64,000 bases of DNA from Candidatus Latescibacterota bacterium (GCA_965206595.1 OZ242214.1:2720001-2784000); one strand, 5' to 3'; positions 20,690 to 37,085 are shown, counted from the stretch's first letter. Made by a program: numbers and translations. The notes: a model not told the origin generated them from the letters alone.

Positions 20690-21458
20690 TCAGTAGAATT
20701 CGTGGGTGAATTGTGGCTCGGGTAAATCGCCAAGCTGATGGAACGAAGCGATTTGGAGTGCCTTGAAGGTGCGAAATCCGAATGCTTTTCTCACCGTCAG
20801 ATTCCATTTCAGGTTCAAACCCTCGACCATGCCGTTGTTGAACTGCTTCCGGGCCCTGAACCAATTGAGGATGAGCTCTTGATGCCGCCGCAGCATCCTG
20901 GCGATGTCTTTCATTGGTTCGATGTTGCTTCTCATCGTACGGAAACACCAGCGCTGGAGAAACTTCTCAGCCCAAGCCGGGTAGGTGTAGTCCCAGAAGC
21001 GCTGGAAGTCCTCCTTGAGCAGGTAGGCTCGGACCGTCCGCAGGTTCATCTTCAATAGCTCCGACAGCTTCAAGCCCTGGGAGTCGCTGAGGTTCTCCTT
21101 GCGCTTCAGGAAGCACCAGCGGCTCTTGCTCAGGACCGGATCCTGGCCCTGTTCTTTGAGTCTGCGGGCCTCTTCGGCACGGACTTTGTCGAGGCCCTTG
21201 CCAAAGTGCTGCATGATGTGAAAACGGTCGAGGATATGTACCGCGGTGGGCAGCCGCTTGCTGATCACGGTGAGGTAGGCTTTCCAGATATCAGAGCAGA
21301 TGACGGTAATCTGGTCGAGGAAACGGGTCGGCTCCTGCTCGCCGGCGGCTTCCTGCTTGCGCCGGTGCTCCTGCTCCAGTTCGGTAAAGCCGTCGTTCAA
21401 GGCCTTCTTCGTCCGCTTCTCGCCCATCCACAACAGGCGGCGGCGGTGGGGGTCGATC
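20690..21458 (-). pseudogene. ISL3 transposase, C-terminal half
   Basis: ICSDIWKAY, LDRFHI, NGMVEGLN, AFGFR. Confidence 0.93.
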
Positions 21459-21642
21459 GGGGATTATATACATAATTCAGCAAGCCTGATTTAAGTAATC
21501 TCACCCGCGAATTTAAAGAAAATCTGGTATAATATTATAGAGAAAATACAGAAGAGAGGACATCCAGAGCCTCCAGTGTTTAGCCCCGAGCACGGAAGTG
21601 TGCCACCTTGACACCGTGAATCTGGGTCGATACTCGCATCAT
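21459..21642 (+). repeat. Left long terminal inverted repeat with inward extended -10 (TGGTATAAT, 21525-21533)
   Basis: Aligns with the reverse complement of ~46140-46321. Confidence 0.9.
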
Positions 21643-21659: not shown

Positions 21660-21997
21660 CGTGGAAGCGACGAGAAATCATTCCGTCTGGTTGACGAGTT
21701 GACAAGGGGAGATAGCTGGGGATTCCTGAAGCAGGCTGATCCATGCTCAAGATCCCCCGAAAATCCTGACCCCAGGCTACCAGCAGGGGTTGTCGCCTTG
21801 GTGACCATCCTGATAGATCGGGGGCTTCATCCACAGACCCAGTTCGATTCGCGATACGGAAGCGAGGCACCAGGCAGCAGTTTTCATCTTTCTGACCATT
21901 CGAGAAGATTTCCCCGCTTTCTTCCACAGACCCAGTTCTACTCCCGATCCGGAAAACGGTTTCCTCCCGACTGACGAAAGGTTACCAGCAGGTCCTC
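21660..21997. repeat. Conserved post-transposase module built from degenerate ~90-115 bp repeats
   Basis: GGCTACSAGCAGG..GTTGTCRYCTT..TGACCAT..TCCACAGACYCAGTTC recurs at ~21775, ~21866, ~25629 and ~34154. Confidence 0.75.
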
Positions 21998-23007
21998 TTG
22001 GATCCGGAGAGCATCCCTGCATCCGGGATATGGCCCTGTTGCAGTCCGTTGATTTCACCGGGCTTTTCCACCTTCCTGACCTTGCGGAAGGGTTCGCCCT
22101 CCTTCCACCGATGATGAGTGAAGGGTCTCGGGGGGACCTCCGTCGCCAGCAGATCCCGGTGGGTCAGCGGCTTCCCAACCATGCCGGAAACAAGGGATTT
22201 CATCTGATCCAGGGTATCCATTCCTCGAAGATTGTGCCTGCCTGTGATCTCGTTGAGGTATTGGGGCAAATACTTGGGAGATAGGTGGCGATAGATGCCG
22301 TAGGTTCCCTTGATCTGAGAATTGAACGATTCAGCACGGTTCGTTGTGGCGTCGTCCCTGGCGTATTCACCGTTTTTGTGATTGACGACTTCGTGCCTTG
22401 CCGCCCATCGGAAATCGGAGTAGGCGGGTAACTCGTCGGTAAAAAGGGTGCCCCCCCGGCGTAGGTGTTTCTTCACGAAAGCGGACAAGGTCTCTTCCGT
22501 CTTTTTGAGGATCACCTCGGCGGCTACGCTGCCGGTTTCTCGGTCGTACATTACGGCGGCGATGCTGACGCCCTTCTGCCACTGGCGACCGAATTTCTTG
22601 TTGCGGTGCCTGTTTGGATCTTCTCCTCCGATATTGACTTCGTCTACTTCACCGACATTGCAGTTGAGGCTTTCCTGTTTGGGCCAGCCTTCCCGGATGC
22701 GATGCAGCATGAACAATGCGGATTTCTCCGTTAGGCCGAGGTCAAAGGCGAGCTGCCTGCCGCTGATTCCGTAGGGCCGGGTCAGATGCAGGTGAATTCC
22801 GATAGCCCACTTCCGCAAGGGGATCTTGGAGTTGGCCAAAACCGACCCGGTGCGAACGCTGAAGTGCTTCCGGCAGTCGCCGCACCAGTAGGGCCTGTTC
22901 GAGCGGTTGCGGCAGGCCGTAATCCGGTCGCAGCATCCGCAGTGAGGGCAGTATATGCGAACAGGAAGCCCGTCTACGAGCTCCCCCATCTGTCTTCGTC
23001 GAGCCAT
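21982..23007 (-). CDS. IS1595-family transposase, N-terminally truncated
   Basis: Zn ribbon CPHC...CGDC, HTH, EVDEVNIGG, LFTDE, HEVVNH, TNRAESFNSQIK. Confidence 0.9.
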   Translation of the reverse strand: MARRRQMGELVDGLPVRIYCPHCGCCDRITACRNRSNRPYWCGDCRKHFSVRTGSVLANSKIPLRKWAIGIHLHLTRPYGISGRQLAFDLGLTEKSALFMLHRIREGWPKQESLNCNVGEVDEVNIGGEDPNRHRNKKFGRQWQKGVSIAAVMYDRETGSVAAEVILKKTEETLSAFVKKHLRRGGTLFTDELPAYSDFRWAARHEVVNHKNGEYARDDATTNRAESFNSQIKGTYGIYRHLSPKYLPQYLNEITGRHNLRGMDTLDQMKSLVSGMVGKPLTHRDLLATEVPPRPFTHHRWKEGEPFRKVRKVEKPGEINGLQQGHIPDAGMLSGSKRTCW

Positions 23008-23242
23008 TTTTCTGCTCTGGGATCCTCAAGTGTTTAGCCCGGAACACGGCAACATGGTCATATGGCACCCTGAATCGGGGTCGATAGGCGCATCACTACC
23101 GGGTCTATTCGGGGGGCTACCGGGCAAGGAACCTCCAAATCAGAGAGCCCGTCGAGCCTGATCGTTCTGTGTGCAGAAAATTCGCCCCCTGCTTCAGATC
23201 GTGCAATCCGCTTGGGCGAGCAGGAGAAGGAGGAGAGGAGGC

Positions 23243-24151
23243 CTACTCCAAAGAGGCTTTGATCCGTCCCCAGGTAACGGACTCGACTGCCGTAGCCTGA
23301 GCGGGAAGCAACAGCCCATCGAGAAAGATATCCGCCATTGAATGAAACAGCCACCGGAAGGCTTCCTCGTCGTCAATGCCTTCCGGGTTCCAGGGTACTG
23401 GAGTATCTACATCAACGGAGGGATCGGAGGGATCGGAGTCGTGGATGACAGGTGCGAAACCGATGATCTGATTGGCGGACAGCTCGCTGAAAGGGATTTC
23501 AGCTATGCTGTCGCCCCATCCGTCCTGTGGCGTGACATACATCTCGACAACCCAGACAAAGGGGTTTTCTCCAGCTACACTTCCACCCGCATCTCCGTAG
23601 GGCGGGGAGGTGTGCCAGGGTTGGAGAAAGCTGTGTTCGCTGGCCAAGGTTGGGCCGCTTACTGTTCGTGAAATGGCCTCGTATTTCTGCGTTTCTCCAT
23701 AACTCGGCAATCTATCCTCAAGCGTACCGTAGCCATGGATGAATCCTTTGCCGCCGCTATGATCCGCATCGAGGTAAAGCGTAATGCTGTCATTAAGGGG
23801 AATCCATGGTATGATACCCTCTCCAGACCAATCATGGTTGTTCTCGTATTCATCGTCGATTACGATGAAGGCTGCATATATTCGGTTCAGTTCGTCGTGC
23901 CAAGCCAGCCAGATGCGGAAGTCGAGGTTGGAGGGATCAGGAGGGATATAATCATCGTTGGTCTTGAAATCCAGCAGGGTCATGTTGGGTTCGCCGATCT
24001 CATACCACTCGTCGACAAATCCATCGTGTATATTGATTTTTCTCAGCATTTCATCGGTAAGCTCGTAGAAGGGGTACAGGCGATTCCCGCTATGCGCTTC
24101 ACCCAAGCTCGCAAAAATCAGGACGATAAGAAGTCCACTAAGTACCTGCAT
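23243..24151 (-). CDS. Secreted CBM9/DOMON-like protein, copy 1
   Basis: Signal peptide (GEA|HSG), IHDGFVDEW, WLAWHDELNRIY, YLDADHSGG, C-terminal TAVESVTWGRIK. Confidence 0.65.
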   Translation of the reverse strand: MQVLSGLLIVLIFASLGEAHSGNRLYPFYELTDEMLRKINIHDGFVDEWYEIGEPNMTLLDFKTNDDYIPPDPSNLDFRIWLAWHDELNRIYAAFIVIDDEYENNHDWSGEGIIPWIPLNDSITLYLDADHSGGKGFIHGYGTLEDRLPSYGETQKYEAISRTVSGPTLASEHSFLQPWHTSPPYGDAGGSVAGENPFVWVVEMYVTPQDGWGDSIAEIPFSELSANQIIGFAPVIHDSDPSDPSVDVDTPVPWNPEGIDDEEAFRWLFHSMADIFLDGLLLPAQATAVESVTWGRIKASLE

Positions 24152-24173
24152 TGATTCCCCCTTGGGTTTCCAT

Positions 24174-25058
24174 TCAGAAGTCAACCAATCGAACCAGCCA
24201 GCCCCAAAAGGGCTCAGGACGGCTGGACAGGAAGCAATAGTTATCCCCATCCGGTGACCATGACAGCTGCAAGTCACTTTCATGGGAAGGAAGCCGGGTT
24301 ACCTTCGTTCCCTTCACGTAGACGCCTCCTATCCCATCTCGGTTGGAGAGAAATGCAACCTCTCCCTTTGAAGTCCAAACCGGATTCCAGTCTTTCGCGA
24401 AATGGTTTGTCATTCTTGTAATCGTCCCATCTAAATCTGCAATACAGATTTCCGGGTTACCGTAGCGGATGCACTCGAAGGCAATTCGAGTGCCTTCGGG
24501 CGACCACGCAGGACGAACATCCGGGCTGTCATGGCGGGTGAGGTTGCGGAGACGGCCTTCTTGGTCCGCAAGATAGATTTCCATGTTGCTGTCTCGGTAG
24601 GTTGTAAAAGCAAGTAGGCCGTTCTTTGACCAAGCTGGAAGAATTCCGTCCTGAATGATTTTCTTAATCTGGCCATCCTCAAGGTTCAAACTGAAGATAT
24701 CGTACGACTCTGCCTCCTCCGCGCCACCCCCAAATGCGATCTCAGTGCTGTTGGGATGCCAGGACATGCCAAGGGTGAAGGTCAGTGGTGATGGCATAGG
24801 AATCGTTTTCAACCGGTCCCCATCAGTTGAGATAAGTTGAAATGCGTTATCCTGTCGATCATGGTAGAGGATGTGTTGGCCATCTGGAGACCAAATGGGG
24901 TTAAAAGCCCCAGAATCAGACAGTCGCCGAACCTGATCGTTAATTTTGCAATAAACACTCCCGCTTTCGTGCCCATCCACAGGAGATAGCAAGAGGAGCA
25001 AGAGAGGCCCTATTCTAACGAAGCCCTGTTTAATTCCCATGGATTCGGAGAGGCCCAC
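24174..25058 (-). CDS. Secreted TolB-like PD40 beta-propeller, copy 1
   Basis: Repeated PIWSPDG / PAWSPEG / SWSPDG motifs, signal peptide. Confidence 0.9.
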   Translation of the reverse strand: MGLSESMGIKQGFVRIGPLLLLLLSPVDGHESGSVYCKINDQVRRLSDSGAFNPIWSPDGQHILYHDRQDNAFQLISTDGDRLKTIPMPSPLTFTLGMSWHPNSTEIAFGGGAEEAESYDIFSLNLEDGQIKKIIQDGILPAWSKNGLLAFTTYRDSNMEIYLADQEGRLRNLTRHDSPDVRPAWSPEGTRIAFECIRYGNPEICIADLDGTITRMTNHFAKDWNPVWTSKGEVAFLSNRDGIGGVYVKGTKVTRLPSHESDLQLSWSPDGDNYCFLSSRPEPFWGWLVRLVDF

Positions 25059-25179
25059 CTGAGTCGGACAACAACTGTTGGAAGCCAGCGATAAATTGCT
25101 TACCCTAGTGGCTTGGGTTCGCTACGGCCCCCGGCAACGGTCCAAACTTCCAAGTCTATCTGTTTGCTATGCCGGGGAT

Positions 25180-25225
25180 TCCACCGGGATTCTCAAGCGC
25201 GTCGGGATAAGAGAATCCCGGTGGA
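25180..25225 (-). terminator. 15-bp perfect hairpin between the peptide and TolB genes
   Basis: TCCACCGGGATTCTC-16nt-GAGAATCCCGGTGGA; second copy at 33336-33381. Confidence 0.55.
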
Positions 25226-25254
25226 CGGACAACTGCCTTCCTCCATTTAGTTCA

Positions 25255-25482
25255 TCACTGGTCACAACACATGCATTGATAGCCGTTCCCGTAAAGCTCG
25301 GCATGACTATGGCTATGACTCCAGCAGTGGTAGCCACACATCCATTGCTGTGCTACGGATGTATGGTGGCCGTATTCCTCAAGCGATCGCGGAGGAGAGT
25401 GAGCACCAACATAGGTAATGGCAGTTAGAGAGACTCCAATTGCCATCAAAGCGCTAATTATGAGGCTTTTTCGGCGAATCAT
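25255..25482 (-). CDS. 75-aa secreted His/Cys-rich peptide, variant 1
   Basis: GAGGAGG RBS; signal peptide ending VGA; mature HSPPRSLEEYGHH...WMCGYHCW...QCMCCDQ; two paralogues of identical length. Confidence 0.85.
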   Translation of the reverse strand: MIRRKSLIISALMAIGVSLTAITYVGAHSPPRSLEEYGHHTSVAQQWMCGYHCWSHSHSHAELYGNGYQCMCCDQ

Positions 25483-25830
25483 TACAACCTCCTCTTGGGA
25501 GAGAGAACCTTTGGGAATGTCGGGCGACAAGCCCAACAGCTTAGTAAGCAAGCTAATGAATCTGTTGATGGTTTTGCAAGGAAAAAGACAAGGATACAAA
25601 AACCATCGTAGGAAGATACGGAAGGGAAGGCTACGAGCAGGGTTGTCGCCTTGCTGACCATCCTGATTGATTCGGGGCTTCATCCACAGACTCAGTTCTA
25701 TTCCCGGTCCGTAAAACAGTATCCTCCCGACTGACGGCAGGCTACGAGCAGGTCCTCATGGCCCCCCGAGCGCATCCTACACCTCCGGAAACAGACGAGC
25801 AGGAAACCGAGGTCCCTGTTCCGTCGAAAA

Positions 25831-26793
25831 TCAGAACCCATCCGGATTTGTCACCGTGGTGACCTTGAGAAAGGGTTCGCCCTCCTTCCACCGATGATGA
25901 GTGAAGGGTCTCGGGGGGACCTCCGTCGCCAGCAGATCCCGGTGGGTCAGCGGCTTCCCAACCATGCCGGAAACAAGGGATTTCATCTGATCCAGGGTAT
26001 CCATTCCTCGAAGATTGTGCCTGCCTGTGATCTCGTTGAGGTATTGGGGCAAATACTTGGGAGATAGGTGGCGATAGATGCCGTAGGTTCCCTTGATCTG
26101 AGAATTGAACGATTCAGCACGGTTCGTTGTGGCGTCGCCCCTGGCGTATTCCCCTTTTTTTGTGATTGACGGCTTCGTGTCTTGCCGCCCATCCGAAATC
26201 GGAATAAGAGGGATACTCGTCGGAAAAAAGCGTGCCCCCTTGGCGTAGGTGTTTCTTGATGAAAAGGGATAAGGTTCTTCCTCTGTCCTGTCGGGGATCA
26301 CCTCGGAGGCTACCTTGCCGGTGTCCGGGTCGCACATTACGCCCGCGATGCTGACGCCCTTCGCCCAGTTGTGGCCAAACCTCTTGTCGAAATGCCTGTT
26401 TTTATCGACTCCCCCGATGAAGACTTCGTCTACTTCACCGACCCGGCAGTTGAGGCTTTCCTGTTCTGGCCAGCCTTCCCGGATGCGATGCAGCATGAAC
26501 AATGCGGATTTCTCCGTTAGGCCGAGGTCAAAGGCGAGCTGCCTGCCGCTGATTCCGTAGGGCCGGGTCAGATGCAGGTGAATTCCGATAGCCCACTTCC
26601 GCAAGGGGATCTTGGAGTTGGCCAAAACCGACCCGGTGCGAACGCTGAAGTGCTTCCGGCAGGCTCCGCACCAGTAGGGCCTGTTCCCGTGTTTTCGACA
26701 CGCCGTTATCCGGTCGCAGCATCCGCAGTGAGGGCAGTATATGCGAACAGGAAGCCCGTCTACGAGCTCCCCCATCTGTCTTCGTCGAGCCAT
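25831..26793 (-). pseudogene. IS1595-family transposase, truncated, with two compensating frameshifts
   Basis: Paralogue of 21982-23007; the central TLSLFIKKHLRQGGTLFSDE segment is in another frame. Confidence 0.88.
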
Positions 26794-27028
26794 TTTTCTG
26801 CTCTGGGATCCTCAAGTGTTTAGCCCGGAACACGGCAACATGGTCATATGGCACCCTGAATCGGGGTCGATAGGCGCATCACTACCGGGTCTATTCGGGG
26901 GGCTACCGGGCAAGGAACCTCCAAATCAGAGAGCCCGTCGAGCCTGATCGTTCTGTGTGCAGAAAATTCGCCCCCTGCTTCAGATCGTGCAATCCGCTTG
27001 GGCGAGCAGGAGAAGGAGGAGAGGAGGC

Positions 27029-27928
27029 CTACTCCAAAGAGGCTTTGATCCGTCCCCAGGTAACGGACTCGACTGCCGTAGCCTGAGCGGGAAGCAACAG
27101 CCCATCGAGGAAGATATCCGCCATTGAATGAAACAGCCACCGGAGGGCTTCCTCATCGTCAATGCCTTCCGGGTTCCAGGGTATTGAAGTCTCTACATCA
27201 AAGGAGGGATCGGAGTCATTGATGACAGGTGCGAAACCGATGATCTGATTGGCGGACAGCTCGCTGAAAGGGATTTCAGCTATGCTGTCGCCCCATCCGT
27301 CCTGTGGCGTGACATACATCTCGACAACCCAGACAAAGGGGTTTTCTCCAGCTACACTTCCACCCGCATCTCCGTAGGGCGGGGAGGTGTGCCAGGGTTG
27401 GAGAAAGCTGTGTTCGCTGGCCAAGGTTGGGCCGCTTACTGTTCGTGAAATGGCAGAGTATTTCTGCGTTTCTCCATAACTCGGCAATCTATCCTCAAGC
27501 GTACCGTAGCCATGGATGAATCCTTTGCCGCCGCTATGATCCGCATCGAGGTAAAGCGTAATGCTGTCATTAAGGGGAATCCATGGTATGATACCCTCTC
27601 CAGACCAATCATGGTTGTTCTCGTATTCATCGTCGATTACGATGAAGGCTGCATATATTCGGTTCAGTTCGTCGTGCCAAGCCAGCCAGATGCGGAAGTC
27701 GAGGTTGGAGGGATCAGGAGGGATAAAATTATCGTTGGTCTTGAAATCCAGCAGGGTCATGTTGGGTTCGCCGATCTCATACCACTCGTCGATAAATCCA
27801 TCGTGTATATTGATTTTTCTCAGCATTTCATCAGTAAGCTCGTAGAAGGGGTACAGGCGATTCCCGCTATGCGCTTCACCCAAGCTCGCAAAAATCAAGA
27901 CGATAAGAAGTCCACTAAGTACCTGCAA
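27029..27928 (-). CDS. Secreted CBM9/DOMON-like protein, copy 2 (TTG start)
   Basis: Near-identical to copy 1 apart from clustered substitutions. Confidence 0.65.
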   Translation of the reverse strand: MQVLSGLLIVLIFASLGEAHSGNRLYPFYELTDEMLRKINIHDGFIDEWYEIGEPNMTLLDFKTNDNFIPPDPSNLDFRIWLAWHDELNRIYAAFIVIDDEYENNHDWSGEGIIPWIPLNDSITLYLDADHSGGKGFIHGYGTLEDRLPSYGETQKYSAISRTVSGPTLASEHSFLQPWHTSPPYGDAGGSVAGENPFVWVVEMYVTPQDGWGDSIAEIPFSELSANQIIGFAPVINDSDPSFDVETSIPWNPEGIDDEEALRWLFHSMADIFLDGLLLPAQATAVESVTWGRIKASLE

Positions 27929-27949
27929 AGATTACCCCTTGGGTTTCCA

Positions 27950-28675
27950 TGACGACTGTTTCATTAAAGTTAGACACTCTTGTCCAAAACAATGTTTGAA
28001 AATGGTGGTTGAAGCCCTCCGGGGTGTGTTGCATGTTGTGGTGTGCAGACCAAGCAATACAACACATCACTACAACAGGAGGGCTTCGGTGTCATGGTAC
28101 GGCAAGCGAGTCTGTTCAGTCAATTGCTGCGGCAGGTGCCGCGCAGTGAATTCGATCATCTGGTACGCCAGCACGGGGCCGAGAAATGGGCGAAGGGATT
28201 CACCTGCTGGACGCAGTTCGTGGCCATGCTGTTCTGCCATCTGGGACGGGCGGACTCGCTACGTGAGATCTGCCATGGCTTGGCCTGTTGCGTAGGCAAG
28301 CTGGTGCACATCGGGATCGGCCGGGCGCCCAAGCGCTCGTCGCTGTCCTACGCCAACGCCCATCGGCCGGCGGACCTGTTCGAGGATCTGTTCTGGCACT
28401 TGGCCGATCGCCTGCGGAGTCGGGAGGGCCTCGGTCAGCGCAAGACGAAGTTCCGCTTCAAGAATAAGCTGATGAGCCTGGACTCGACGACCCTCTCCCT
28501 GTGCCTGTCGCTGTTCCCGTGGGCCCGCTTTCGACGCGCCAAGGGTGGGGTCAAGGTGCACGTGCTGCTGGACCATGACGACTACATGCCCTCCTATGTC
28601 CTGCTGACGGAGGCACGGCGACACGACCGGATGGGCGCGCGTCTGCTCAGCCTCAACCCCGGGTCCATCGTCGCC
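27950..28675 (+). mobile_element. IS4-family element (DUF4372 transposase), 3'-truncated
   Basis: MVRQASLFSQLL...WTQFVAMLFCHL...SLDSTTLSL...KGGVKVHVLLD; begins where the TolB 3' end would be expected. Confidence 0.85.
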
Positions 28676-28679
28676 CCGT

Positions 28680-29283
28680 CAGCCCCATCAATCGACGCAC
28701 GCGCTTGCGGCCGACTTCATACCCCTAGCGCGGCAGGTGACGGGCCATCTGCCGCGACCCATACCAGGGCGTGGCCAGAAACTGCTCGTCGATACAGCGA
28801 ATCACCTGCCGGTTGAAGGCACTCCCTCCGACCCGCGTATACGTAGGTGGACGCGACAGGGCAACCAAGGTGCACGGGCGCACGACAGGGAGCCGGAGAT
28901 GATCTGGTTCGATCATCGCTTCCCTTCGGTCGCGGCTCAACGGCCGAAGGCGCGAGACAAAAAACGTTCTCGACGGTCAGCTGGCCGATTTTGGCGTGCA
29001 ACGCCTTGCCTCGGCCGCATGATCCGCGGCGCGGGAAGAGGTCTTGCGGGCGAACACCTCCGGCAAGCTCTCCGTGCTTGCCGTTTCCACTGCGCAATCA
29101 CGTTGGGGTGCAGGTTATGCTTGGCAGCGAGCTCGGCCAGGCCCTGGTCGCCGACCAGGGCCTCCAAGGCGACTTTGCCCTTGAACTGAGCGGAAAAGCT
29201 ACGCGGTTCCCCATGTCTCCAGTCCTTCCGAAGAGGGGTTGGATCCACCTAACGTAACTGTCCGAATTTCGGGGTCCACTTCT
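28680..29283 (-). mobile_element. IS3-family remnant (orfA and start of orfB), heavily frameshifted
   Basis: FSAQFKGKVALEAL...HPNVIAQWKRQ; IDEQFLATPWYGSRQM; AGTGGACCCCGAAATTCGGACA end. Confidence 0.85.
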
Positions 29284-29416
29284 AATTGTCCACATGCCCG
29301 TTCCCTTCCCAGTTCGTGCCGCCCTGCGCGGAGTGTATGTCCCCATCGGCGTCAGATCCTCCGCCCAGCGAAAACGGAGTATTCCGAACAGTTGCCAAGC
29401 TGGGAGAGGGTAACGT

Positions 29417-29644
29417 TCAGTCCATACACCTACAGCAATCACTGTGTGTCCCGTAAAGGTTCGCGACATTGTGATTATGGCCCCAGCAATAGTAGCCGCA
29501 CAGCCATGGTTGCGATAACGTGGCATCATGGCTGTAGTGAACCTCCGACAGCGGACGCGAATGAGCACCTACATATGCAGATTTGGCTAGAAAAACTCCA
29601 CCTGCTAGCAAAGCCGCAATTATTAAGTGCTTTTTACGAATCAT
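29417..29644 (-). CDS. 75-aa secreted His/Cys-rich peptide, variant 3
   Basis: GAGGAG RBS; YVGA|HSRP...WLCGYYCWGHNH...LYG...CCRCMD aligns without gaps to variants 1 and 2. Confidence 0.85.
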   Translation of the reverse strand: MIRKKHLIIAALLAGGVFLAKSAYVGAHSRPLSEVHYSHDATLSQPWLCGYYCWGHNHNVANLYGTHSDCCRCMD

Positions 29645-30191
29645 TGGAACTCTCCTCAGGTTTGAGGGAATTGAAAGGGGAACTGAACCTGAGGCATTCT
29701 CCAGATACGCCAATAGACCTCAACTCAAATTCAGTCCATTTCTATATGTACTGAGGTTGTTGGTATTTTGCAAGGGAAAAAGGGGAAATGGGGAAATTGG
29801 AGAGCTGGGCCCGATCCTCGCTCCAGGATCCTGTTGCAACGGATTCTGGAGGAGAGGTAACGGAGTTGCTACGCTGACCTGCCTCTGTCTGTCGGCTGCT
29901 CGGGGCCGCTGGTCACTTCGACGCGGGCCACGGCCGCGGAGCGGCACCAGCTGGCCGCGCGGGGTGTAGATCGGCAGGGCGGCGATGTCCTGGGTGCGGG
30001 ATCAGTCCTCCTCGCCCCGCCGGAGAATGGAATTGTAAAAAGTTCTGGGAGTCACTTTGGTACCGGCGCATCACAAACCCCTATTTCCACGGACGGCGCA
30101 AGCTTCCCTACCGGCAGTGGCTCAGCCTTGGCCGGGCGGCGCACCCTGGACGACATACCGAATTTTACAGGATTCGGCTAATGGGTCTACC

Positions 30192-30524
30192 TCAAGATCG
30201 GCCTGAATGCGCCCCCGGAGTCGAAAACGGTACTCTGTAGCTTCCCGTCGACATCGAGCCCCGGCATTTCTCCAAGGGGATCGGGGAGTGAGACAACCCC
30301 GTTCCGGGACGAACGCTGAACCGCCTTCGGCAGGCTCCACACCAGTAGGGCTGAGCGAATCTGGAATTCCTGGTAATACGGTCGCAGCATCCACAGTGAG
30401 GGCAGTATATGGAGACGGGTAAGTCTTCTACGAATTCTCCCCATCTTACCTCTTCGAACCATTCTTCCGCCGAAATATTATCATCAATTTTAACCGTTAA
30501 CGAGATACCTTTGTAATTGTTCAC
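30192..30524 (-). pseudogene. IS1595 transposase N-terminal fragment
   Basis: AEEWFEEVRWG...IYCPHCGC...YWCGACRRRFSVR; homology ends after the Zn ribbon. Confidence 0.85.
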
Positions 30525-30732
30525 TACGATTACCTTCGAGCCGTGGAATACCGTACTGAGACCAGCGGCTCTCTTCAAATATTGTGATTCACGCTCCCAT
30601 ATCATCCTTTCGGTTTCAGAGGGAAGGTGACTCCGTCGGTGTGCACCGACAGCAGGGACTGGGAAGCGGAATGCTGCCGGCTTCCCGTGTTCAATGTGCC
30701 TTTATTGTACCTGGGCTGAACTAAAAAATCAA
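30525..30732 (-). promoter_or_regulatory. Transposase promoter and leader, copy B
   Basis: TTGATT-17-TACAAT (30732-30704), palindrome 30635-30650, mini-ORF ATG GGA GCG TGA (30600-30589). Confidence 0.7.
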
Positions 30733-31179
30733 ATTAGCCTTAGGAGGAGGTTTATAAAACCCACAATATGGCGGAGAGAAACTTAAATTTCTGGGAGCAG
30801 GAGGGGGGCAGGACAGGGGAGGGGGCTGCTTCCTCGGTAATCGGCGGAACGGAGTCAGCTACGAGGTCGAAGCGGGAAAGAGGAGAGATTTCAGGAACGG
30901 CTGTGTCGAGGTGCGGCTACGGAACTGCGAGGTGAGGCATCTCCAAAGCTGGCGAACCGGCAGGCGGTGGGTGGCCCTGGGCACGGTCTTTGCTGGGATT
31001 CCGCTGCGGGAAGAAGGGGGTTTCTCCCTGCGGAGTATACGGAAGCTGACGATTCGCGAGGGATCCTCCCGTTGCCTTGCACACCCCCTTGGGAAATCGG
31101 CACCGTGGATCGGAAGGTCGGGGTATCCGAGCCCGAAATTACCTCTGAGTGCAGGGGTTGACGGGATTCGGCCTTGCGA

Positions 31180-31405
31180 CGCATAACGTGCGACGCTGGA
31201 GCAACTCATCGCAGCCTCACCGCTGGGTAGCCACGGCGTTGCTGGACATCGAACCGCGTCTGCGCCGGGTCAAAGGCTACCGTCACTTGCCAACGCTGCG
31301 ACACGCCCTGCAAGCCAAACTCGGAATCAAACAGCTCGCCAGGGCGGGCTGATCAATCAACGCAACTGAGCCTGTGCTTGTTTCAACTGAAAATGGGACT
31401 TGCCC
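31180..31405 (+). mobile_element. IS256-family 3' remnant
   Basis: NVRRWSNSSQPHRWVATALLDIEPRLRRVKGYRHLP; ends in TTTCAACTGAAAATGGGACTTGCCC. Confidence 0.75.
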
Positions 31406-31412
31406 GGCTGGC

Positions 31413-32312
31413 CTACTCCAAAGAGGCTTTGATCCGTCCCCAGGTAACGGACTCGACTGCCGTAGCCTGAGCGGGAAGCAACAGCCCATCGAGGAAGAGA
31501 TCCGCCATTGAATGGGGCAGCAACAGGAAGGCTTCCTCATCGTCAATGCCTTCCGGGTTCCAGGGTATTGAAGTATCTGGATCAAAGGAGGGATCGGAGT
31601 CGTTGATGACAGGTGCGAAACCGATGATCTGATTGGCGGACAGCTCGCTGAAAAGGATTTCAGCTATGCTGTCGCCCCATCCGTCCTGTGGTGTGACATA
31701 CATCTCGACAACCCAGACGAAGGGGTTTTCTCCAGCTACATTTCCACCCGCATCTCCGTAGGGCGGGGAGGTGTGCCAGGGTTGGAGAAAGCTGTGTTCG
31801 CTGGCCAAGGTTGGGCCGCTTACTGTACGTGAAATGGCATCGTACTTCTGCGTTTCTCCATAACTCGGCAATCTATCCCCAAGAGTACCGTAGCCATCGG
31901 TGAATCCTTTGCCGCCGTTGTGATCCGCATCGAGGTAAAGCGTAATGCTGTCATAAAGGTCAATCTGTGGTATGACATTCTCTCCAGACCAATCATGGTT
32001 ATTCTCGTATTCATCGTCGACTACGATGAAGGCTGCATATATTCGGTTCAGCTCGTCATGCCAAGCCAGCCAGATGCGGAAGTCGAGGTTGGAGGGATCA
32101 CGAGGGATAAAATCATCATTGGTCTTGAAATCCAGCAGAGTCATGTTGGGTTCGCCGATCTCATACCATTCGTCGATAAATCCATCGTGTATATTGATCT
32201 TTCTCAGCATTTCATCGGTAAGCTCGTAGAAGGGGTACAGGCGATTCCCGCTATGCGCTTCACCCAAGCTCGCAAAAATCAGGACGACAAGAAGTCCACT
32301 AAGTACCTGCAT
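31413..32312 (-). CDS. Secreted CBM9/DOMON-like protein, copy 3
   Basis: Paralogue of copies 1 and 2 with variable patches. Confidence 0.65.
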   Translation of the reverse strand: MQVLSGLLVVLIFASLGEAHSGNRLYPFYELTDEMLRKINIHDGFIDEWYEIGEPNMTLLDFKTNDDFIPRDPSNLDFRIWLAWHDELNRIYAAFIVVDDEYENNHDWSGENVIPQIDLYDSITLYLDADHNGGKGFTDGYGTLGDRLPSYGETQKYDAISRTVSGPTLASEHSFLQPWHTSPPYGDAGGNVAGENPFVWVVEMYVTPQDGWGDSIAEILFSELSANQIIGFAPVINDSDPSFDPDTSIPWNPEGIDDEEAFLLLPHSMADLFLDGLLLPAQATAVESVTWGRIKASLE

Positions 32313-32334
32313 TGATTCCCCCTTGGGTTTCCAT

Positions 32335-33219
32335 TCAGAAGTCAACCAATCGAACCAGCCAGCCCCAAAAGGGCTCAGGACGGCTGGACAGGAAGCAATA
32401 GTTATCCCCATCCGGTGACCATGACAGCTGCAAGTCACTTTCATGGGAAGGAAGCCGGGTTACCTTCGTTCCCTTCACGTAGACGCCTCCTATCCCATCT
32501 CGGTTGGAGAGAAATGCAACCTCTCCCTTTGAAGTCCAAACCGGATTCCAGTCTTTCGCGAAATGGTTTGTCATTCTTGTAATCGTCCCATCTAAATCTG
32601 CAATACAGATTTCCGGGTTACCGTAGCGGATGCACTCGAAGGCAATTCGAGTGCCTTCGGGCGACCACGCAGGACGAACATCCGGGCTGTCATGGCGGGT
32701 GAGGTTGCGGAGACGGCCTTCTTGGTCCGCAAGATAGATTTCCATGTTGCTGTCTCGGTAGGTTGTAAAAGCAAGTAGGCCGTTCTTTGACCAAGCTGGA
32801 AGAATTCCGTCCTGAATGATTTTCTTAATCTGGCCATCCTCAAGGTTCAAACTGAAGATATCGTACGACTCTGCCTCCTCCGCGCCACCCCCAAATGCGA
32901 TCTCAGTGCTGTTGGGATGCCAGGACATGCCAAGGGTGAAGGTCAGTGGTGATGGCATAGGAATCGTTTTCAACCGGTCCCCATCAGTTGAGATAAGTTG
33001 AAATGCGTTATCCTGTCGATCATGGTAGAGGATGTGTTGGCCATCTGGAGACCAAATGGGGTTAAAAGCCCCAGAATCAGACAGTCGCCGAACCTGATCG
33101 TTAATTTTGCAATAAACACTCCCGCTTTCGTGCCCATCCACAGGAGATAGCAAGAGGAGCAAGAGAGGCCCTATTCTAACGAAGCCCTGTTTAATTCCCA
33201 TGGATTCGGAGAGGCCCAC
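32335..33219 (-). CDS. Secreted TolB-like PD40 beta-propeller, copy 2
   Basis: Protein identical to 24174-25058. Confidence 0.9.
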   Translation of the reverse strand: MGLSESMGIKQGFVRIGPLLLLLLSPVDGHESGSVYCKINDQVRRLSDSGAFNPIWSPDGQHILYHDRQDNAFQLISTDGDRLKTIPMPSPLTFTLGMSWHPNSTEIAFGGGAEEAESYDIFSLNLEDGQIKKIIQDGILPAWSKNGLLAFTTYRDSNMEIYLADQEGRLRNLTRHDSPDVRPAWSPEGTRIAFECIRYGNPEICIADLDGTITRMTNHFAKDWNPVWTSKGEVAFLSNRDGIGGVYVKGTKVTRLPSHESDLQLSWSPDGDNYCFLSSRPEPFWGWLVRLVDF

Positions 33220-33410
33220 CTGAGTCGGACAACAACTGTTGGAAGCCAGCGATAAATTGCTTACCCTAGTGGCTTGGGTTCGACGGCCCCCTGCAACGGT
33301 CCAAACTTCCAGTCTATCTGTTTGCTAGCCGGGATTCCACCGAGATTCTCAAGCGCGTCGGGATAAGAGAATCCCGGTGGACGGACAACTGCCTTCCTCC
33401 ATTTAGTTCA

Positions 33411-33638
33411 TCACTGGTCACAACACCTGCATTGATAGCCGTTCCCGTAAAGCTCGGCATGAGAATGGCTATGACCCCAGCAGTGGTAGCCACACAGCCA
33501 TTGCTGTTGTACGGTTGTTTTGTGGCCGAAATATTCCAGAGATTCCGGAGGAGAGTGAGCACCAACGTAGGTAATGGCAGTTAGAGAGACTCCAATTGCC
33601 ATCAAAGCGCTAATTATGAGGCTTTTTCGGCGAATCAT
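33411..33638 (-). CDS. 75-aa secreted His/Cys-rich peptide, variant 2
   Basis: Same signal peptide and RBS as variant 1; 9 substitutions in the mature part. Confidence 0.85.
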   Translation of the reverse strand: MIRRKSLIISALMAIGVSLTAITYVGAHSPPESLEYFGHKTTVQQQWLCGYHCWGHSHSHAELYGNGYQCRCCDQ

Positions 33639-33763
33639 TACAACCTCCTCTTGGGAGAGAGAACCTTTGGGAATGTCGGGCGACAAGCCCAACAGCTTAG
33701 TAAGCAAGCTAATGAATCTGTTGATGGTTTTGCAAGGAAAAAAGACAAGGATACAAAAACCAT

Positions 33764-33809
33764 GGTGAGGTTCCCCCGGTTTCCCGGGTGAGGTTCCCCC
33801 GGTTTCCCG
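33764..33809. repeat. 23-bp tandem duplication at the edge of the duplicated cassette
   Basis: GGTGAGGTTCCCCCGGTTTCCCG x2. Confidence 0.85.
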
Positions 33810-34270
33810 GAACTATTTTCAGAAATAAGACCGGGATCTGACCGGTCAGCCAGCTGCTTTCACGGGCGGCTGGCCTTCCTTCTGTTTGTGGCTATGGAGC
33901 TACACATTAACGGCATGACAAGGTTGCTCCTATTGCAGGAGCATAGAAATTGGCAATGCATATTCTGGCCCATGGCCTCCCATGAGGGGGATGCGGCATC
34001 GGGGATCACCCGGTCTGAGCAAGCCGTTGTCGCCGGTGTGAGGAGCAATGATGCGGTCTGGTCGACAAGGGGGCAAGGAGGAGGGCTGGGGAGTTCTCAG
34101 GGTTGCAGGCTGATCCATGCGCAAGATCCCTCCGTAGGAGGATACGGAGGGAAGGCTACGAGGAGGGTTGTCATCTTGCTGACCATCCGAGAAGATTCTC
34201 TCCATCCACAGGCTCAGTTCCGGGCGATGAAGATTTCTCCTACGGGAGAATATTATCGGGAGGAAACGGG

Positions 34271-35296
34271 TCACCGGGGGTCTGTAACCTTGCTGACTTT
34301 ACGGAAGGGTTCGCCCTCCTTCCATCGATGATGCGTGAAGGGAACCGGAGGGACCTCCGTGCTCACGAGGTCCCGGTGCGTCAGCCGTTTCCCTTCCAAG
34401 CCGGACACGAGGAGTTTTACCTTATCCAGGGTATCCATTCCTCGCAGATTGTGCCTGCCTGTGATTTCCTTGAGGTATCGGGGCAAATACTTGGGAGATA
34501 GGTGGCGATAGATGCCGTAGGTTCCCTTGATCTGAGAATTAAACGATTCAGCACGGTTCGTTCCGGCGTCCCCTCTGACGTATTGCCCTTTATTGTGGTT
34601 GACGACTTCGTGTCTTGCCGCCCATTGAAAATCGGAATAGGAAGGGAACTCGTCGGTGAAAAGGGTGCCTCCCCGGCGTAGGTGTTTCTTTACAAAAGCG
34701 GACAAGGTCTCCTCTGTCTTTTCGAGGATCACCTCGGCGGCTACCCTGCCGGTTTCCCGGTCGCACATTACGACCGCGATGCTGACGCCCTTCCGCCAGT
34801 TGCGGCCAAACTTCTTGTCGAAGTGCCTGTTTGGATCTTCTCCTCCGACATTGACTTCGTCTGCTTCAGCGACCTTGCAGTTGAGGCTTTCCGGTTCTTT
34901 CCACCCTTCCCGGATGCGCTGGAGCATGAACCATGCGCTTTTCTGCGTGATGCCGAGGTCCTCGGCAAGCAGCCGGCTGCTGATACCGTACGGCCGGGTC
35001 GAGTGCAGGTGAATTCCGACGACCCATGTCTGATAGGGAATCTTGGAGTTGGCTAACCTGGTTCTGGTGCGAACGCTGAAGTGTTTTCGACAGTCGCCAC
35101 ACCAGTAGGGCCTGTTCCCCCGGTTGCGGCAGGCGGTTATCCTGCCGCAGCAGTGGCAGTGCGGGCAGTATATGGAGACAGGAAGCCCGTCTACGGTCTT
35201 CCCCCATCTTTCCTCTTCGAACCATCTTTCTGCTGTGGCATCATCTGGAAACATATCGAATAAATCGATTAACGATAAACCTTTACCTTTCTTCAC
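34271..35296 (-). CDS. IS1595-family transposase, apparently intact
   Basis: LSLIDLFDMFPDDATAERWFEEERW, Zn ribbon, EADEVNVGG, LFTDE, TNRAES, PRYLKEITGRHN. Confidence 0.95.
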   Translation of the reverse strand: MKKGKGLSLIDLFDMFPDDATAERWFEEERWGKTVDGLPVSIYCPHCHCCGRITACRNRGNRPYWCGDCRKHFSVRTRTRLANSKIPYQTWVVGIHLHSTRPYGISSRLLAEDLGITQKSAWFMLQRIREGWKEPESLNCKVAEADEVNVGGEDPNRHFDKKFGRNWRKGVSIAVVMCDRETGRVAAEVILEKTEETLSAFVKKHLRRGGTLFTDEFPSYSDFQWAARHEVVNHNKGQYVRGDAGTNRAESFNSQIKGTYGIYRHLSPKYLPRYLKEITGRHNLRGMDTLDKVKLLVSGLEGKRLTHRDLVSTEVPPVPFTHHRWKEGEPFRKVSKVTDPR

Positions 35297-35511
35297 TTCG
35301 ATTACCTTCGGACCGTGGAATACCGTACTTGAGACCTGCGGCCCTCAAAAAACAGTGTGATTCACGCTCCCATAGGATTCCTTTCGCGTAGTAGTGGGAA
35401 GGTGATCTGTCGGTGTTCACCGACAGAAAAGACTGGGGAAGCGGCAGCGGATTCCTGCCGGCTACCCCTATGAGTTACCCATTAGTGTACCTGGCTGAAC
35501 TAAAAAAGCAA
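35297..35511 (-). promoter_or_regulatory. Transposase promoter and leader, copy A
   Basis: TTGCTT-16-TACACT (35511-35484), GC hairpin ~35434-35468, palindrome 35407-35426, mini-ORF 35373-35362. Confidence 0.7.
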
Positions 35512-36068
35512 ATCGGACTTCTGGGGTGGATTCGACAAACGTCTGATGACGGCGGAAAACTTTAGTTATTGGAAGGAGGGAAAGCAGGAATGGCGGGGGA
35601 GGCAAGGAAGTCGGGGGCTCAGGTAGGCTCCGATGCAAGGGCGGTGAGCATCCAGCCGATTCCTTCAGGAGCTGGAGCCGGAGTGAGGTCTTTGCGGGCT
35701 GAGATCCTGGGGGGGGGGGGGGAGGGGATTGCGGGGCTGCAAGCCCGGTGTCGCTGGAGGTCTCAGTCTGGATCGGTGTGCCTGGGAAGTTCAGAAACTG
35801 CGGGGCGAGGGTGCCGCTGGGGGATAGGACGTGGTGACGCTGTTTCTCGACGGCAAGGGCTTCGCCGAGGAGGATACCGCCTGGGGCAACGACCTCACCA
35901 GGGCGGCGAGAGGAACAGCATGACCACGCTACTCGGCCTGACTACCCCGAGCAGAGGCAAGTGTCAGGAAATTACCATCACTGTACATGTTATACCAGAA
36001 AGGTGCGGAATTCGCGTTGCCCCCGGAAATGGGGGCAGGGTGGGTTTATCTATTTCTTCTTCTGATGT

Positions 36069-37085
36069 TCATTCTCTCAATAGTCCAATGCACTCCCGAG
36101 TTGCTGCTGAGCTAAACCCGGACTTAATAAGAGTTGCATTGTCTCTAATTGCCTGTGGGGTGTCGGTTGGCCAGTCTTCCTTATCTATTACAATTATCTT
36201 AGTACCATGTTTCAGTTGGCTCAACAAGATATACTCTATTTCTTCATCCCTAAATGAAAACCCAACAAAAATTACAATGTCAGTGTTTCGTGCAATATGG
36301 TTTAAATAATCATAAAACTTATCAAATGGATGTTCATGTGGTCGGCCTTTAAATCCAGGATATAGAACGGGGTGATTGTTAGAATCAAATCCCTCGTCTT
36401 GAACGCTGCAACATTGTATTACTCCATCTTTCCATTTCCAATCTACTGATCCATGCAGCTTTGTGAATAACCCTTTTTGTCCTAAACGAACAGGGGGAAT
36501 TACCCAATGCTTTGTATCCAAAATTACATAGTCCCCATTGTCATCCAATGTTCTGCCTCTTTCAAGGCTCTTTGTTAGGGTTTCTTTGTCTCCAGAAATT
36601 GCTCGATCAATAACCAAATCGTAATTAGTCGTAAAAATTTCCAATGGAGGAGATAAGGACATGAGATTCTTAAAAAATTCTGTCAAATACTTGGGAATTC
36701 TAAAATCACTTGGACAGTAAACTGAATTGATAGTCTTGCATATTATATCACGCAAACTTTGTAATTCATTAACAAATCCTGGTATCCTTCTAAACTCGTT
36801 ATTAGTGTGTAAATCATTGAAAAATGATCTCCATAAATGTCCTACAACTTTATCGCGATTATTTATATCTGAGAAATGATCGATAGCACTCTCAACTTCC
36901 CGCAATATTCGTTCAATATCGACGGGAATCTCCCTATCCATCTGCATATATTTTACAATTAGTGCATAGAATGAAGAGGTTTTTGCGCTGTCTGGCAAGC
37001 ATTTTTCGTAAAACTCCACCATAGTAGGAAACTTCTCTTCATCTATCGCCCGGGAGCAGCCAGCACCCACGAATAGCAAGATCAT
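36069..37085 (-). CDS. SIR2-like (SIR2_2) domain protein
   Basis: FVGAGCS, FTTNYD, KLHGSVDW, FVGFSFRD; low GC. Confidence 0.9.
   Translation of the reverse strand: MILLFVGAGCSRAIDEEKFPTMVEFYEKCLPDSAKTSSFYALIVKYMQMDREIPVDIERILREVESAIDHFSDINNRDKVVGHLWRSFFNDLHTNNEFRRIPGFVNELQSLRDIICKTINSVYCPSDFRIPKYLTEFFKNLMSLSPPLEIFTTNYDLVIDRAISGDKETLTKSLERGRTLDDNGDYVILDTKHWVIPPVRLGQKGLFTKLHGSVDWKWKDGVIQCCSVQDEGFDSNNHPVLYPGFKGRPHEHPFDKFYDYLNHIARNTDIVIFVGFSFRDEEIEYILLSQLKHGTKIIVIDKEDWPTDTPQAIRDNATLIKSGFSSAATRECIGLLRE

Follow-up and report, generated by a model that had tools for sequence, protein, structure and literature searches.

The locus described here raises the question of how neighbouring copies of one small gene set arose in a Candidatus Latescibacterota genome, what the set encodes, and whether a short secreted peptide within it is selected to diversify. 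It lies in the window analysed here, a stretch of 64,000 nucleotides (nt; bases 2,720,001-2,784,000) from a genome that forms one contig of 7.05 Mb and has a G+C content of 63.7%. On the minus strand, sets of a peptide, a PD40 propeller and a CBM9-fold gene alternate with IS1595-type transposase genes. We name the units A, B and C along the window, with peptide 1 in unit A, peptide 3 in the middle unit and peptide 2 in unit C. A first inspection of the bare DNA, referred to below as the sequence-only reading, had proposed a secreted peptide under diversifying selection that was spread by a transposon. According to our analysis the region instead arose, with a probability of roughly 0.7, when one operon out of a lineage-specific family encoding secreted proteins was amplified locally.

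Results

Secreted CBM9-fold proteins as the core of the operon family

The core gene of the family encodes a stand-alone CBM9-fold protein with a signal peptide and a conserved C-terminal tag. It is represented in the window, always on the minus strand, by protein C (299 aa, 31413..32312, with the C-terminal tag TAVESVTWGRIKASLE), protein A (302 aa, 23243..24151) and protein B (299 aa with a TTG start, 27029..27928), which is 92% identical to C. The sequence-only reading had called these proteins CBM9-like. This name agrees with the predicted fold, since Foldseek of the 299-aa model (pLDDT 82) retrieved the CBM9 structures 7nwn (E 1.8e-8) and 1i82 (E 8.7e-8) with a TM-score of 0.72 on the target, but a match to the CBM9 profile PF06452 was not obtained. 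The 299-aa protein had no Pfam match at E <= 10 and no NCBIfam match at E <= 1, and a PDB sequence search with the family profile returned nothing below E 0.15. Foldseek also matched the haem-binding relatives NxrC and ethylbenzene dehydrogenase gamma. PF06452 was carried by 37%, 13% and 94% of the members in neighbour clusters of the Atlas. The Atlas neighbours come from Latescibacterota, Gemmatimonadota and Poribacteria.

The protein would share its beta-sandwich fold with the known CBM9 modules. In contrast to these, it is secreted and stands alone at 299 aa, not as a module of a glycoside hydrolase, and it is longer by about 100 residues and bears the C-terminal tag as well as an invariant histidine at the N-terminus. 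Besides, W81, W84 and many aspartates are invariant in the aligned CBM9-fold proteins. Another difference is the expansion of the family to 50 loci in one genome: genome-wide we found 87 tblastn matches and 102 open reading frame (ORF) hits, 64 of them near full length. These 64 ORFs are GC-poor (mean 57.7%). Of 168 genomes of the phylum, 84 contained the CBM9-fold family, and within the bacterium's own taxonomic family it was present in 73 of 75. A word search yielded 469 relatives, and 'hypothetical protein' was the sole name among the 120 listed. Relatives of the window genes came almost exclusively from metagenome-assembled genomes (MAGs) labelled Candidatus Latescibacterota. In the literature on CBM9 in sponge symbionts, CBM9 proteins have been reported in a sponge metaproteome, though not this family, and the terms paralog, expanded, hypothetical and transposase are absent from a paper on Latescibacterota of sponges (PMC12993501).

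A PD40 propeller gene frequently accompanies the core gene; with 17 ORFs in 16 loci it is the one real neighbour that recurs beside the CBM9-fold genes. Roughly one locus in four begins with a gene for a precursor of 63-90 aa. Elsewhere the usual order is peptide, one to eight CBM9-fold genes and propeller. The set in the window is thus a rearranged variant (peptide, propeller, CBM9-fold) and is repeated. Its propeller proteins C (32335..33219, minus strand, with a signal peptide; PF07676 at E 3.6e-20) and A (24174..25058, minus strand) have 294 aa each and are identical. They had been labelled TolB/PD40, of which the PD40 propeller stands. An identity as TolB was rejected, as the match to the TolB equivalog TIGR02800 reached 99.6 bits against a cut-off of 343.15 and was limited to positions 197-387 of the 418 profile positions, with no match to the N-terminal part. 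Accordingly, the window protein shares the PD40 beta-propeller with TolB of the Tol-Pal system but lacks the N-terminal part, and it adjoins peptide and CBM9-fold genes instead of tol-pal.

The peptide genes

Each of the three peptide genes encodes exactly 75 aa (peptide 1, 25255..25482; peptide 2, 33411..33638; peptide 3, 29417..29644; all on the minus strand) and has a strong ribosome-binding site, AGGAGG or GAGGAG, 7-8 nt before the ATG. Peptide 2 consists of a 27-aa signal peptide and a 48-aa mature part of predicted defensin-like fold. Peptide 1 has the same signal peptide and differs at 9 of the 48 mature residues, and peptide 3 is 57% identical to peptide 2. All three sit within longer ORFs of 142, 98 and 98 aa. 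The sequence-only reading had been accurate on the length of 75 aa, the strong ribosome-binding sites, the shared 27-aa signal peptide, the nine mature differences and the position inside longer ORFs.

Profile searches of the genome detected 18 peptide ORFs, and a 299-aa-type gene followed downstream on the same strand within 1.5 kb in 18 of 18. Residues C49, C53, H58, C70 and C72 were invariant in all 18 aligned peptides, which gives a CxxxC...H...CxC frame. Judged by eye, the signal peptides have a basic n-region, a hydrophobic core and a VGA or VDA cleavage-type site, and the mature parts comprise 38-59 aa. The family members examined carry AAGGAGG-type sites 5-8 nt upstream of the ATG. A further 14 peptide ORFs were found in loci of other Latescibacterota genomes, although overlap between some of the loci means that one place can appear twice. 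Twelve of the 14 have a CBM9-fold gene downstream, at no more than 180 nt in 11 cases and at 1639 nt in the other. The sequence-only reading had suggested a check for conserved three-gene synteny; the link between peptide and CBM9-fold gene is conserved, but the three-gene set is not general.

Small ORFs of this kind might be chance frames and not genes, and it fits such a view that they carry no annotation in the protein collection and that Pfam has no family for the peptide. We nevertheless consider this most improbable, because the frame, signal peptide, ribosome-binding site and position are kept across paralogs and genomes, and because omega (the ratio of non-synonymous to synonymous rates) is below 1 at long range. 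The secreted Cys/His peptide proposed from the sequence is thus taken to be real.

Relatives of the peptide were found beyond this genome. A loose CxxxC...CxC pattern was matched by 28 of 10,027 small ORFs in those loci of other genomes; after 19 of the matches a full-length CBM9-fold family gene follows at no more than 400 nt, and these 19 include an eight-cysteine subtype with one copy in a Gemmatimonadaceae MAG. The peptide profile had 38 matches at E <= 0.001 among 1.84 billion representative proteins, and most of the 22 that were fetched have the same signal peptide and frame. In one of them (P0122), a nearly identical, peptide-2-like allele has been called too long, at 142 aa. A public protein of 525 aa (P0121) contains seven tandem stretches that match the peptide profile, each with C-KWK-C...H...C; it may be either a repeat protein of related units or a compositional match. 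Peptide 2 as a protein of 41-132 aa was absent from a collection of 5.8 billion proteins in a word-based search, and a scan of JGI metagenome contigs with peptide 2 gave 438 pattern matches, none of which was confirmed.

A contig of the polyA RNA library X1 covers 33321-33687 and hence the peptide gene, and X1 also covers 31410-31492. In library X2, which comes from another study and is RNA by guess only, a contig covers 33526-33678. The X1 and X2 contigs end within 10 nt of each other whereas DNA runs continue, and this shared end is a weak hint at a transcript start. The propeller gene and the greater part of the CBM9-fold gene have no contig from either library, although contigs cannot show absence. 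In 31300-34300 a sigma-70 promoter scan returned 0 sites, and terminator-like sites were no more numerous than in shuffles.

Predicted fold of the mature peptide

The mature part combines the CxxxC/CxC frame of a cysteine-stabilised helix with a predicted beta-alpha-beta-beta defensin fold. An AlphaFold2 model (pLDDT 76) has a strand at residues 8-13, a helix at 19-28 and strands at 33-37 and 42-47. The best 15 Foldseek matches listed were all plant defensins or gamma-thionins (best probability 0.92, TM-score 0.60, E 0.33). In VIA-align against 48,161 chains, PsDef2 (Z 5.3, root-mean-square deviation 1.6 over 42 residues) and NsD7 (Z 5.2) were retrieved, and the best 11 matches were defensin or scorpion-type peptides only. 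A PDB sequence search with the peptide family profile found nothing below E 0.15. We therefore describe the product as a predicted two-disulfide, anionic, histidine-rich peptide resembling cis-defensins.

The canonical arrangement of six cysteines in three disulfides (C1-C4, C2-C5, C3-C6) is not present in the window peptides, which lack C1 and C4 and agree with the two-disulfide, helix-stabilised subclass; two relatives at another locus (L072) have the six-cysteine order C..CxxxC..C..CxC. At the gamma-core, for which GXC is the motif, the window copies have G-Y-Q-C (GxxC), and the relatives vary. Bacterial cis-defensins and two-disulfide helix-stabilised peptides have been described from Proteobacteria, Acidobacteria and Actinobacteria, so that Latescibacterota fall outside the phyla named in the accessible part of that work (PMC11561630). 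With these peptides (xanthusin-1, actifensins, AdDLP) the Latescibacterota peptides share a Sec signal peptide, a small mature part and the pairing of a helix CxxxC with a strand CxC. The predicted fold, cysteine-stabilised alpha/beta, would be another common feature, and like plant defensins the peptides would have a strand at the N-terminus. They differ in that the window copies have no third disulfide pair and are anionic and rich in histidine, in an invariant histidine five residues after the helix cysteine pair, and in their position ahead of a CBM9-fold gene, a linkage not found in the literature searched. A search for literature linking defensins to Latescibacter found only unrelated papers.

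The peptide could be a defensin-type bacteriocin against competing sponge microbes, with its neighbours serving export, anchoring or self-protection. The predicted fold would suit such a function, and as far as the accessible part of PMC11561630 goes, bacterial cis-defensins are known and their actifensin class is antibacterial. However, the same source describes xanthusin-1 as a bacterial defensin with no antimicrobial activity, and all 18 mature peptides are neutral or anionic (family net charge -7 to 0), which argues against a cationic membrane-active mode. Moreover, an ABC exporter, a protease or an immunity-like small membrane protein does not recur beside the loci. We therefore regard a bacteriocin as unlikely.

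Organisation and history of the array

The array occupies a low-GC island, with 54% G+C at 18000-52000 of the window; only 0.9% of the 20-kb windows of the genome are below 55%. The recurrent minus-strand order of transposase, peptide, propeller and CBM9-type gene noted in the sequence-only reading is borne out by the gene coordinates, as is the offset of 8161 nt, and the offset of 3786 nt was recovered among the repeat families of a self-comparison. The set is complete in units A and C. The middle one is damaged, as had been stated, and in place of its propeller gene contains debris of insertion sequences (IS), namely an IS3-type OrfA fragment with HTH_Tnp_1 (28937..29248, minus strand, PF01527 at E 4.4e-8) and an IS4-type fragment with DUF4372 (28043..28816, plus strand, PF14294 at E 1.1e-26).

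The repeats form a mosaic. In the self-comparison, 21853-24173 matched 25615-27950 at 92% (transposase and 299-aa gene), and 23240-25609 matched 31410-33766 at 96.5% (299-aa gene, propeller and peptide). The identity of transposase C to A and B is lower, at 83-85%. The second match has its upstream border exactly at a 23-nt unit (GGGAAACCGGGGGAACCTCACC.) that stands twice in tandem (33766-33812). Along the alignment of A and C, about 190 nt of peptide upstream DNA and signal peptide show 0 differences, followed by 19 differences in about 130 nt of mature peptide and 9 in the following spacer. About 950 nt spanning the propeller gene again show 0 differences (32325..33275, minus strand, equal to 24164-25114; alignment columns 650-1600). 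The 299-aa gene mostly has 1-6 differences per 50 nt, with more towards its 3' end. The identity of the 294-aa neighbours, already noted from the sequence, thus extends to the nucleotide level. Synonymous divergence (dS) between A and C is 0.12 for the mature peptide and 0.086 for the 299-aa gene, so these parts appear to be of similar age, and the identical propeller genes, peptide upstream DNA and signal peptide are therefore best read as the product of gene conversion. Peptide 3 has a dS of 1.3-1.5 to peptides 1 and 2, yet its adjoining 299-aa gene is closest to copy A (dS 0.029). The history of the array is reticulate, with peptide 3 as an old member.

Differences confined to about 130 nt between identical flanks would also be expected if a diversity-generating retroelement wrote the variable patch by targeted hypermutation. 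We rejected this explanation, which is hardly credible here: the genome contains no third DNA copy usable as a template, its only two matches to a reverse transcriptase are at distances of about 100 kb and 3.4 Mb, and the peptide changes show no adenine bias.

The transposases of the array belong to the IS1595 family (DDE_Tnp_IS1595 domain PF12762; NF033547) and stand in direct orientation between the repeated units. Transposase C (341 aa, 34271..35296, minus strand) matched PF12762 at E 8e-26 and NF033547 with 130.6 bits against a cut-off of 75. The element around it (34022..35984, minus strand) is the only local copy with both flanks, and its ends are estimated from homology, as an inverted-repeat search found no convincing pair of terminal repeats. 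It matches copies at genome positions 90844-92129, 425462-426747 and 423448-423974, and in a same-genus genome many further copies have homology that starts at window position 34022. The span of homology, from about 35984 to about 34022-34141, reaches past the right border drawn in the sequence-only reading. Because of this homology in its own and the same-genus genome, what had been taken for a conserved module after the transposase is the 3' end of the IS (about 34022-34270 in unit C). Within the element, at 35822-35874, we observed a 53-nt sequence with 87-89% identical copies in at least eight other genome places.

The other transposase copies are degraded. Transposase A (341 aa, 21982..23007, minus strand, PF12762 at E 4.2e-26) and transposase B (25831..26793, minus strand) lack the left part of the IS, about 700 nt, and have only the stretch 22070-23027 in common with C; transposase B is also frameshifted, its middle matching in a second frame at genome 2746117-2746401. 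A fourth copy is a 137-aa N-terminal fragment of a C-type transposase (30192..30605, minus strand; Zn_ribbon_IS1595 at E 0.002, below the cut-off; 72% DNA identity to 35035-35513). Besides, the element was not found within 10 kb of any of the other 49 CBM9-fold loci of the genome, and neither of the two same-genus genomes has a syntenic array. These findings contradict a transposon-borne spread. Most likely, the IS copies did not carry the genes but served as recombination substrates. The array resembles IS-flanked segmental amplification in its directly oriented DDE_Tnp_IS1595 transposases and differs from it in that a single copy has both flanks and the IS carries the genes at none of the other 49 loci. 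The repeats would thus have arisen by unequal crossing-over between IS1595 remnants and not by transposition. Later gene conversion would have made the propeller genes, peptide promoter and signal peptide identical, whereas the mature peptide and the CBM9-fold genes would have retained their synonymous divergence of about 9-12%.

Selection on the mature peptide

In the window pair of peptides 1 and 2, the mature part has an omega of 1.15 (15 non-synonymous and 3 synonymous changes). Pooled over five close pairs, the mature part reached an omega of 1.08 compared with 0.47 in the signal peptide (Fisher p 0.0015), which supports a faster protein-level change of the mature part. An omega above 1 was not significant in the same five pairs (binomial p 0.45), and the changes of the window pair did not differ from those of the adjoining CBM9-fold gene (15:3 vs 31:16, p 0.23). 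Evolution of the mature peptide is close to neutral, and positive selection lacks support. Of the diversifying selection claimed in the sequence-only reading, the contrast to the signal peptide therefore stands and the excess over neutrality does not.

Diversifying selection on the mature peptide as a ligand, toxin or chelator, with the propeller and the CBM9-fold protein as partners, is a possibility that we take seriously although we doubt it. Omega of the mature part was 1.13-1.40 in four of the five close pairs and 0.79 in the fifth, and that of the signal peptide was 0-0.48 in four pairs and 1.03 in one. As the five framework residues never change, the average over the remaining mature sites has to exceed the pooled 1.08. 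At each of positions 40 and 71, four alleles show four different residues. Moreover, the allele in the X1 RNA library differs by K40E, N66 to DD, Y68L, Q69E and R71K, that is by five replacements and one in-frame codon insertion with 0 silent changes and an unchanged signal peptide. Against this stand the non-significant excess, the small counts and the low omega of distant pairs (0.32-0.39 overall, 0.32-0.37 for peptides 1 and 2 compared with peptide 3).

The contrast between a variable mature peptide and an identical TolB neighbour, which had also been read as selection, can be accounted for by gene conversion across those roughly 950 nt. This calls for caution in sequence scans: a conserved signal peptide, a variable mature part and an identical neighbour can all stem from gene conversion, and the pattern is therefore insufficient for calling positive selection.

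Terminal marks of the secreted proteins

The C-terminal tag reads TAVE..[ST]WG.IK and is followed by 2-15 residues; the window copy lies at 31413-31460. Counted over the genome, 50 CBM9-fold ORFs have it in this terminal position, no further than 15 residues from the end, and so do 23 of the 24 motif-bearing ORFs outside the family. The carriers outside the family include two larger PD40-type proteins and a Temptin_C protein, and a Pfam scan of 15 of them assigned no family to 11, PD40 or DPPIV_N to three and Temptin_C to one. Our literature search for 'WGRIK' as such a tag found nothing.

At the N-terminus, a histidine directly follows the predicted signal cleavage site in 60 of 60 aligned CBM9-fold proteins (H20), in seven of eight listed PD40 paralogs and in most peptides. 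The codons concerned are at 32253-32255 (CBM9-fold), 33555-33557 (peptide) and about 33147-33149 (propeller). With a crude signal-peptide pattern, histidine at +1 was found in 11 of 19 family members compared with 2 of 181 other candidates of the genome. Three unrelated folds have it in common, which points to a shared processing step, a signal for sorting or the binding of metal.

An N-terminal histidine brace is found in CopC, YcnI, PmoB and lytic polysaccharide monooxygenases. By analogy, peptide and partners might handle metal and bind Cu, Zn or Ni through the processed histidine. The enrichment at the predicted cleavage site would fit this, as would the two to seven histidines of the peptides (with HSHSH in the window copies). 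A shared signal for processing or sorting would explain the three folds equally well, however, and copper-resistance or transport genes do not recur nearby, so that we think a metal-handling system improbable.

Neighbouring features

Beside the array, a gene at 36069-37085 (minus strand) encodes a 338-aa SIR2_2-domain protein (PF13289, E 1.9e-9), possibly of a defence type; the G+C content of the window is lowest here, with 43.6% at 36-38 kb. On the other side, an ISL3-type transposase fragment was found at 20690-21433 (minus strand). It adjoins 62 nt at 21400-21461 that occur with 98% identity in at least 12 genome places.

Discussion

In our analysis the array belongs to an expanded family of secreted-protein operons whose core is the CBM9-fold gene. 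Several observations weigh against this interpretation or parts of it. The CBM9-fold protein has no sequence match in Pfam, NCBIfam or the PDB, and its fold is a predicted one. For the peptide, the Foldseek E-values (0.33 and worse) are not significant, and a VIA-align Z of 5.3 is within the range reachable by unrelated small folds. The window peptides have five cysteines and not the canonical six, and their net charge of -2 to -3 is unlike that of most antimicrobial defensins. Of the 168 genomes of the phylum only 4 matched the peptide profile, and one of the two same-genus genomes did not; for this reason the three-gene set is not general. Transcription is weakly indicated by contigs from libraries that can hold DNA, and both unequal crossing-over and gene conversion are deduced from patterns of identity alone.

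If the operon family is as we propose, the peptide would be exported by Sec, cut after VGA and closed by two disulfides, with most surface positions free to change. The proteins would most likely form an extracellular or surface glycan-binding array, in which the peptide would act as a co-secreted, fast-evolving effector or ligand and not as a classical cationic antibiotic. A bolder idea is that peptide, propeller and CBM9-fold proteins form one undescribed extracellular system of sponge-type Latescibacterota, marked by the processed N-terminal histidine and the C-terminal TAVE..WG.IK, with the peptide as the variable specificity subunit or ligand of glycan-binding receptor arrays. We offer this as speculation and would not expect it to hold in full. 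A complex prediction of CBM9-fold residues 20-299 with the mature peptide scored 0.00 in two runs made without controls, and we give this score no weight for or against.

The CBM9-fold family is undescribed and expanded, with 50 loci in one genome and members in nearly every genome of the bacterial family. Families so expanded in host-associated bacteria often mediate host contact. Bacterial defensin-like peptides are few and, in the accessible part of PMC11561630, come from three phyla with unclear roles; Latescibacterota would be a fourth. Among the cases that we found, the peptide described here is the first bacterial defensin-like peptide whose genomic partner is fixed, so that co-expression and binding assays could test its function. 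If the three proteins indeed form a single extracellular system, bacterial defensins would gain a first conserved partner and a non-antibiotic role.

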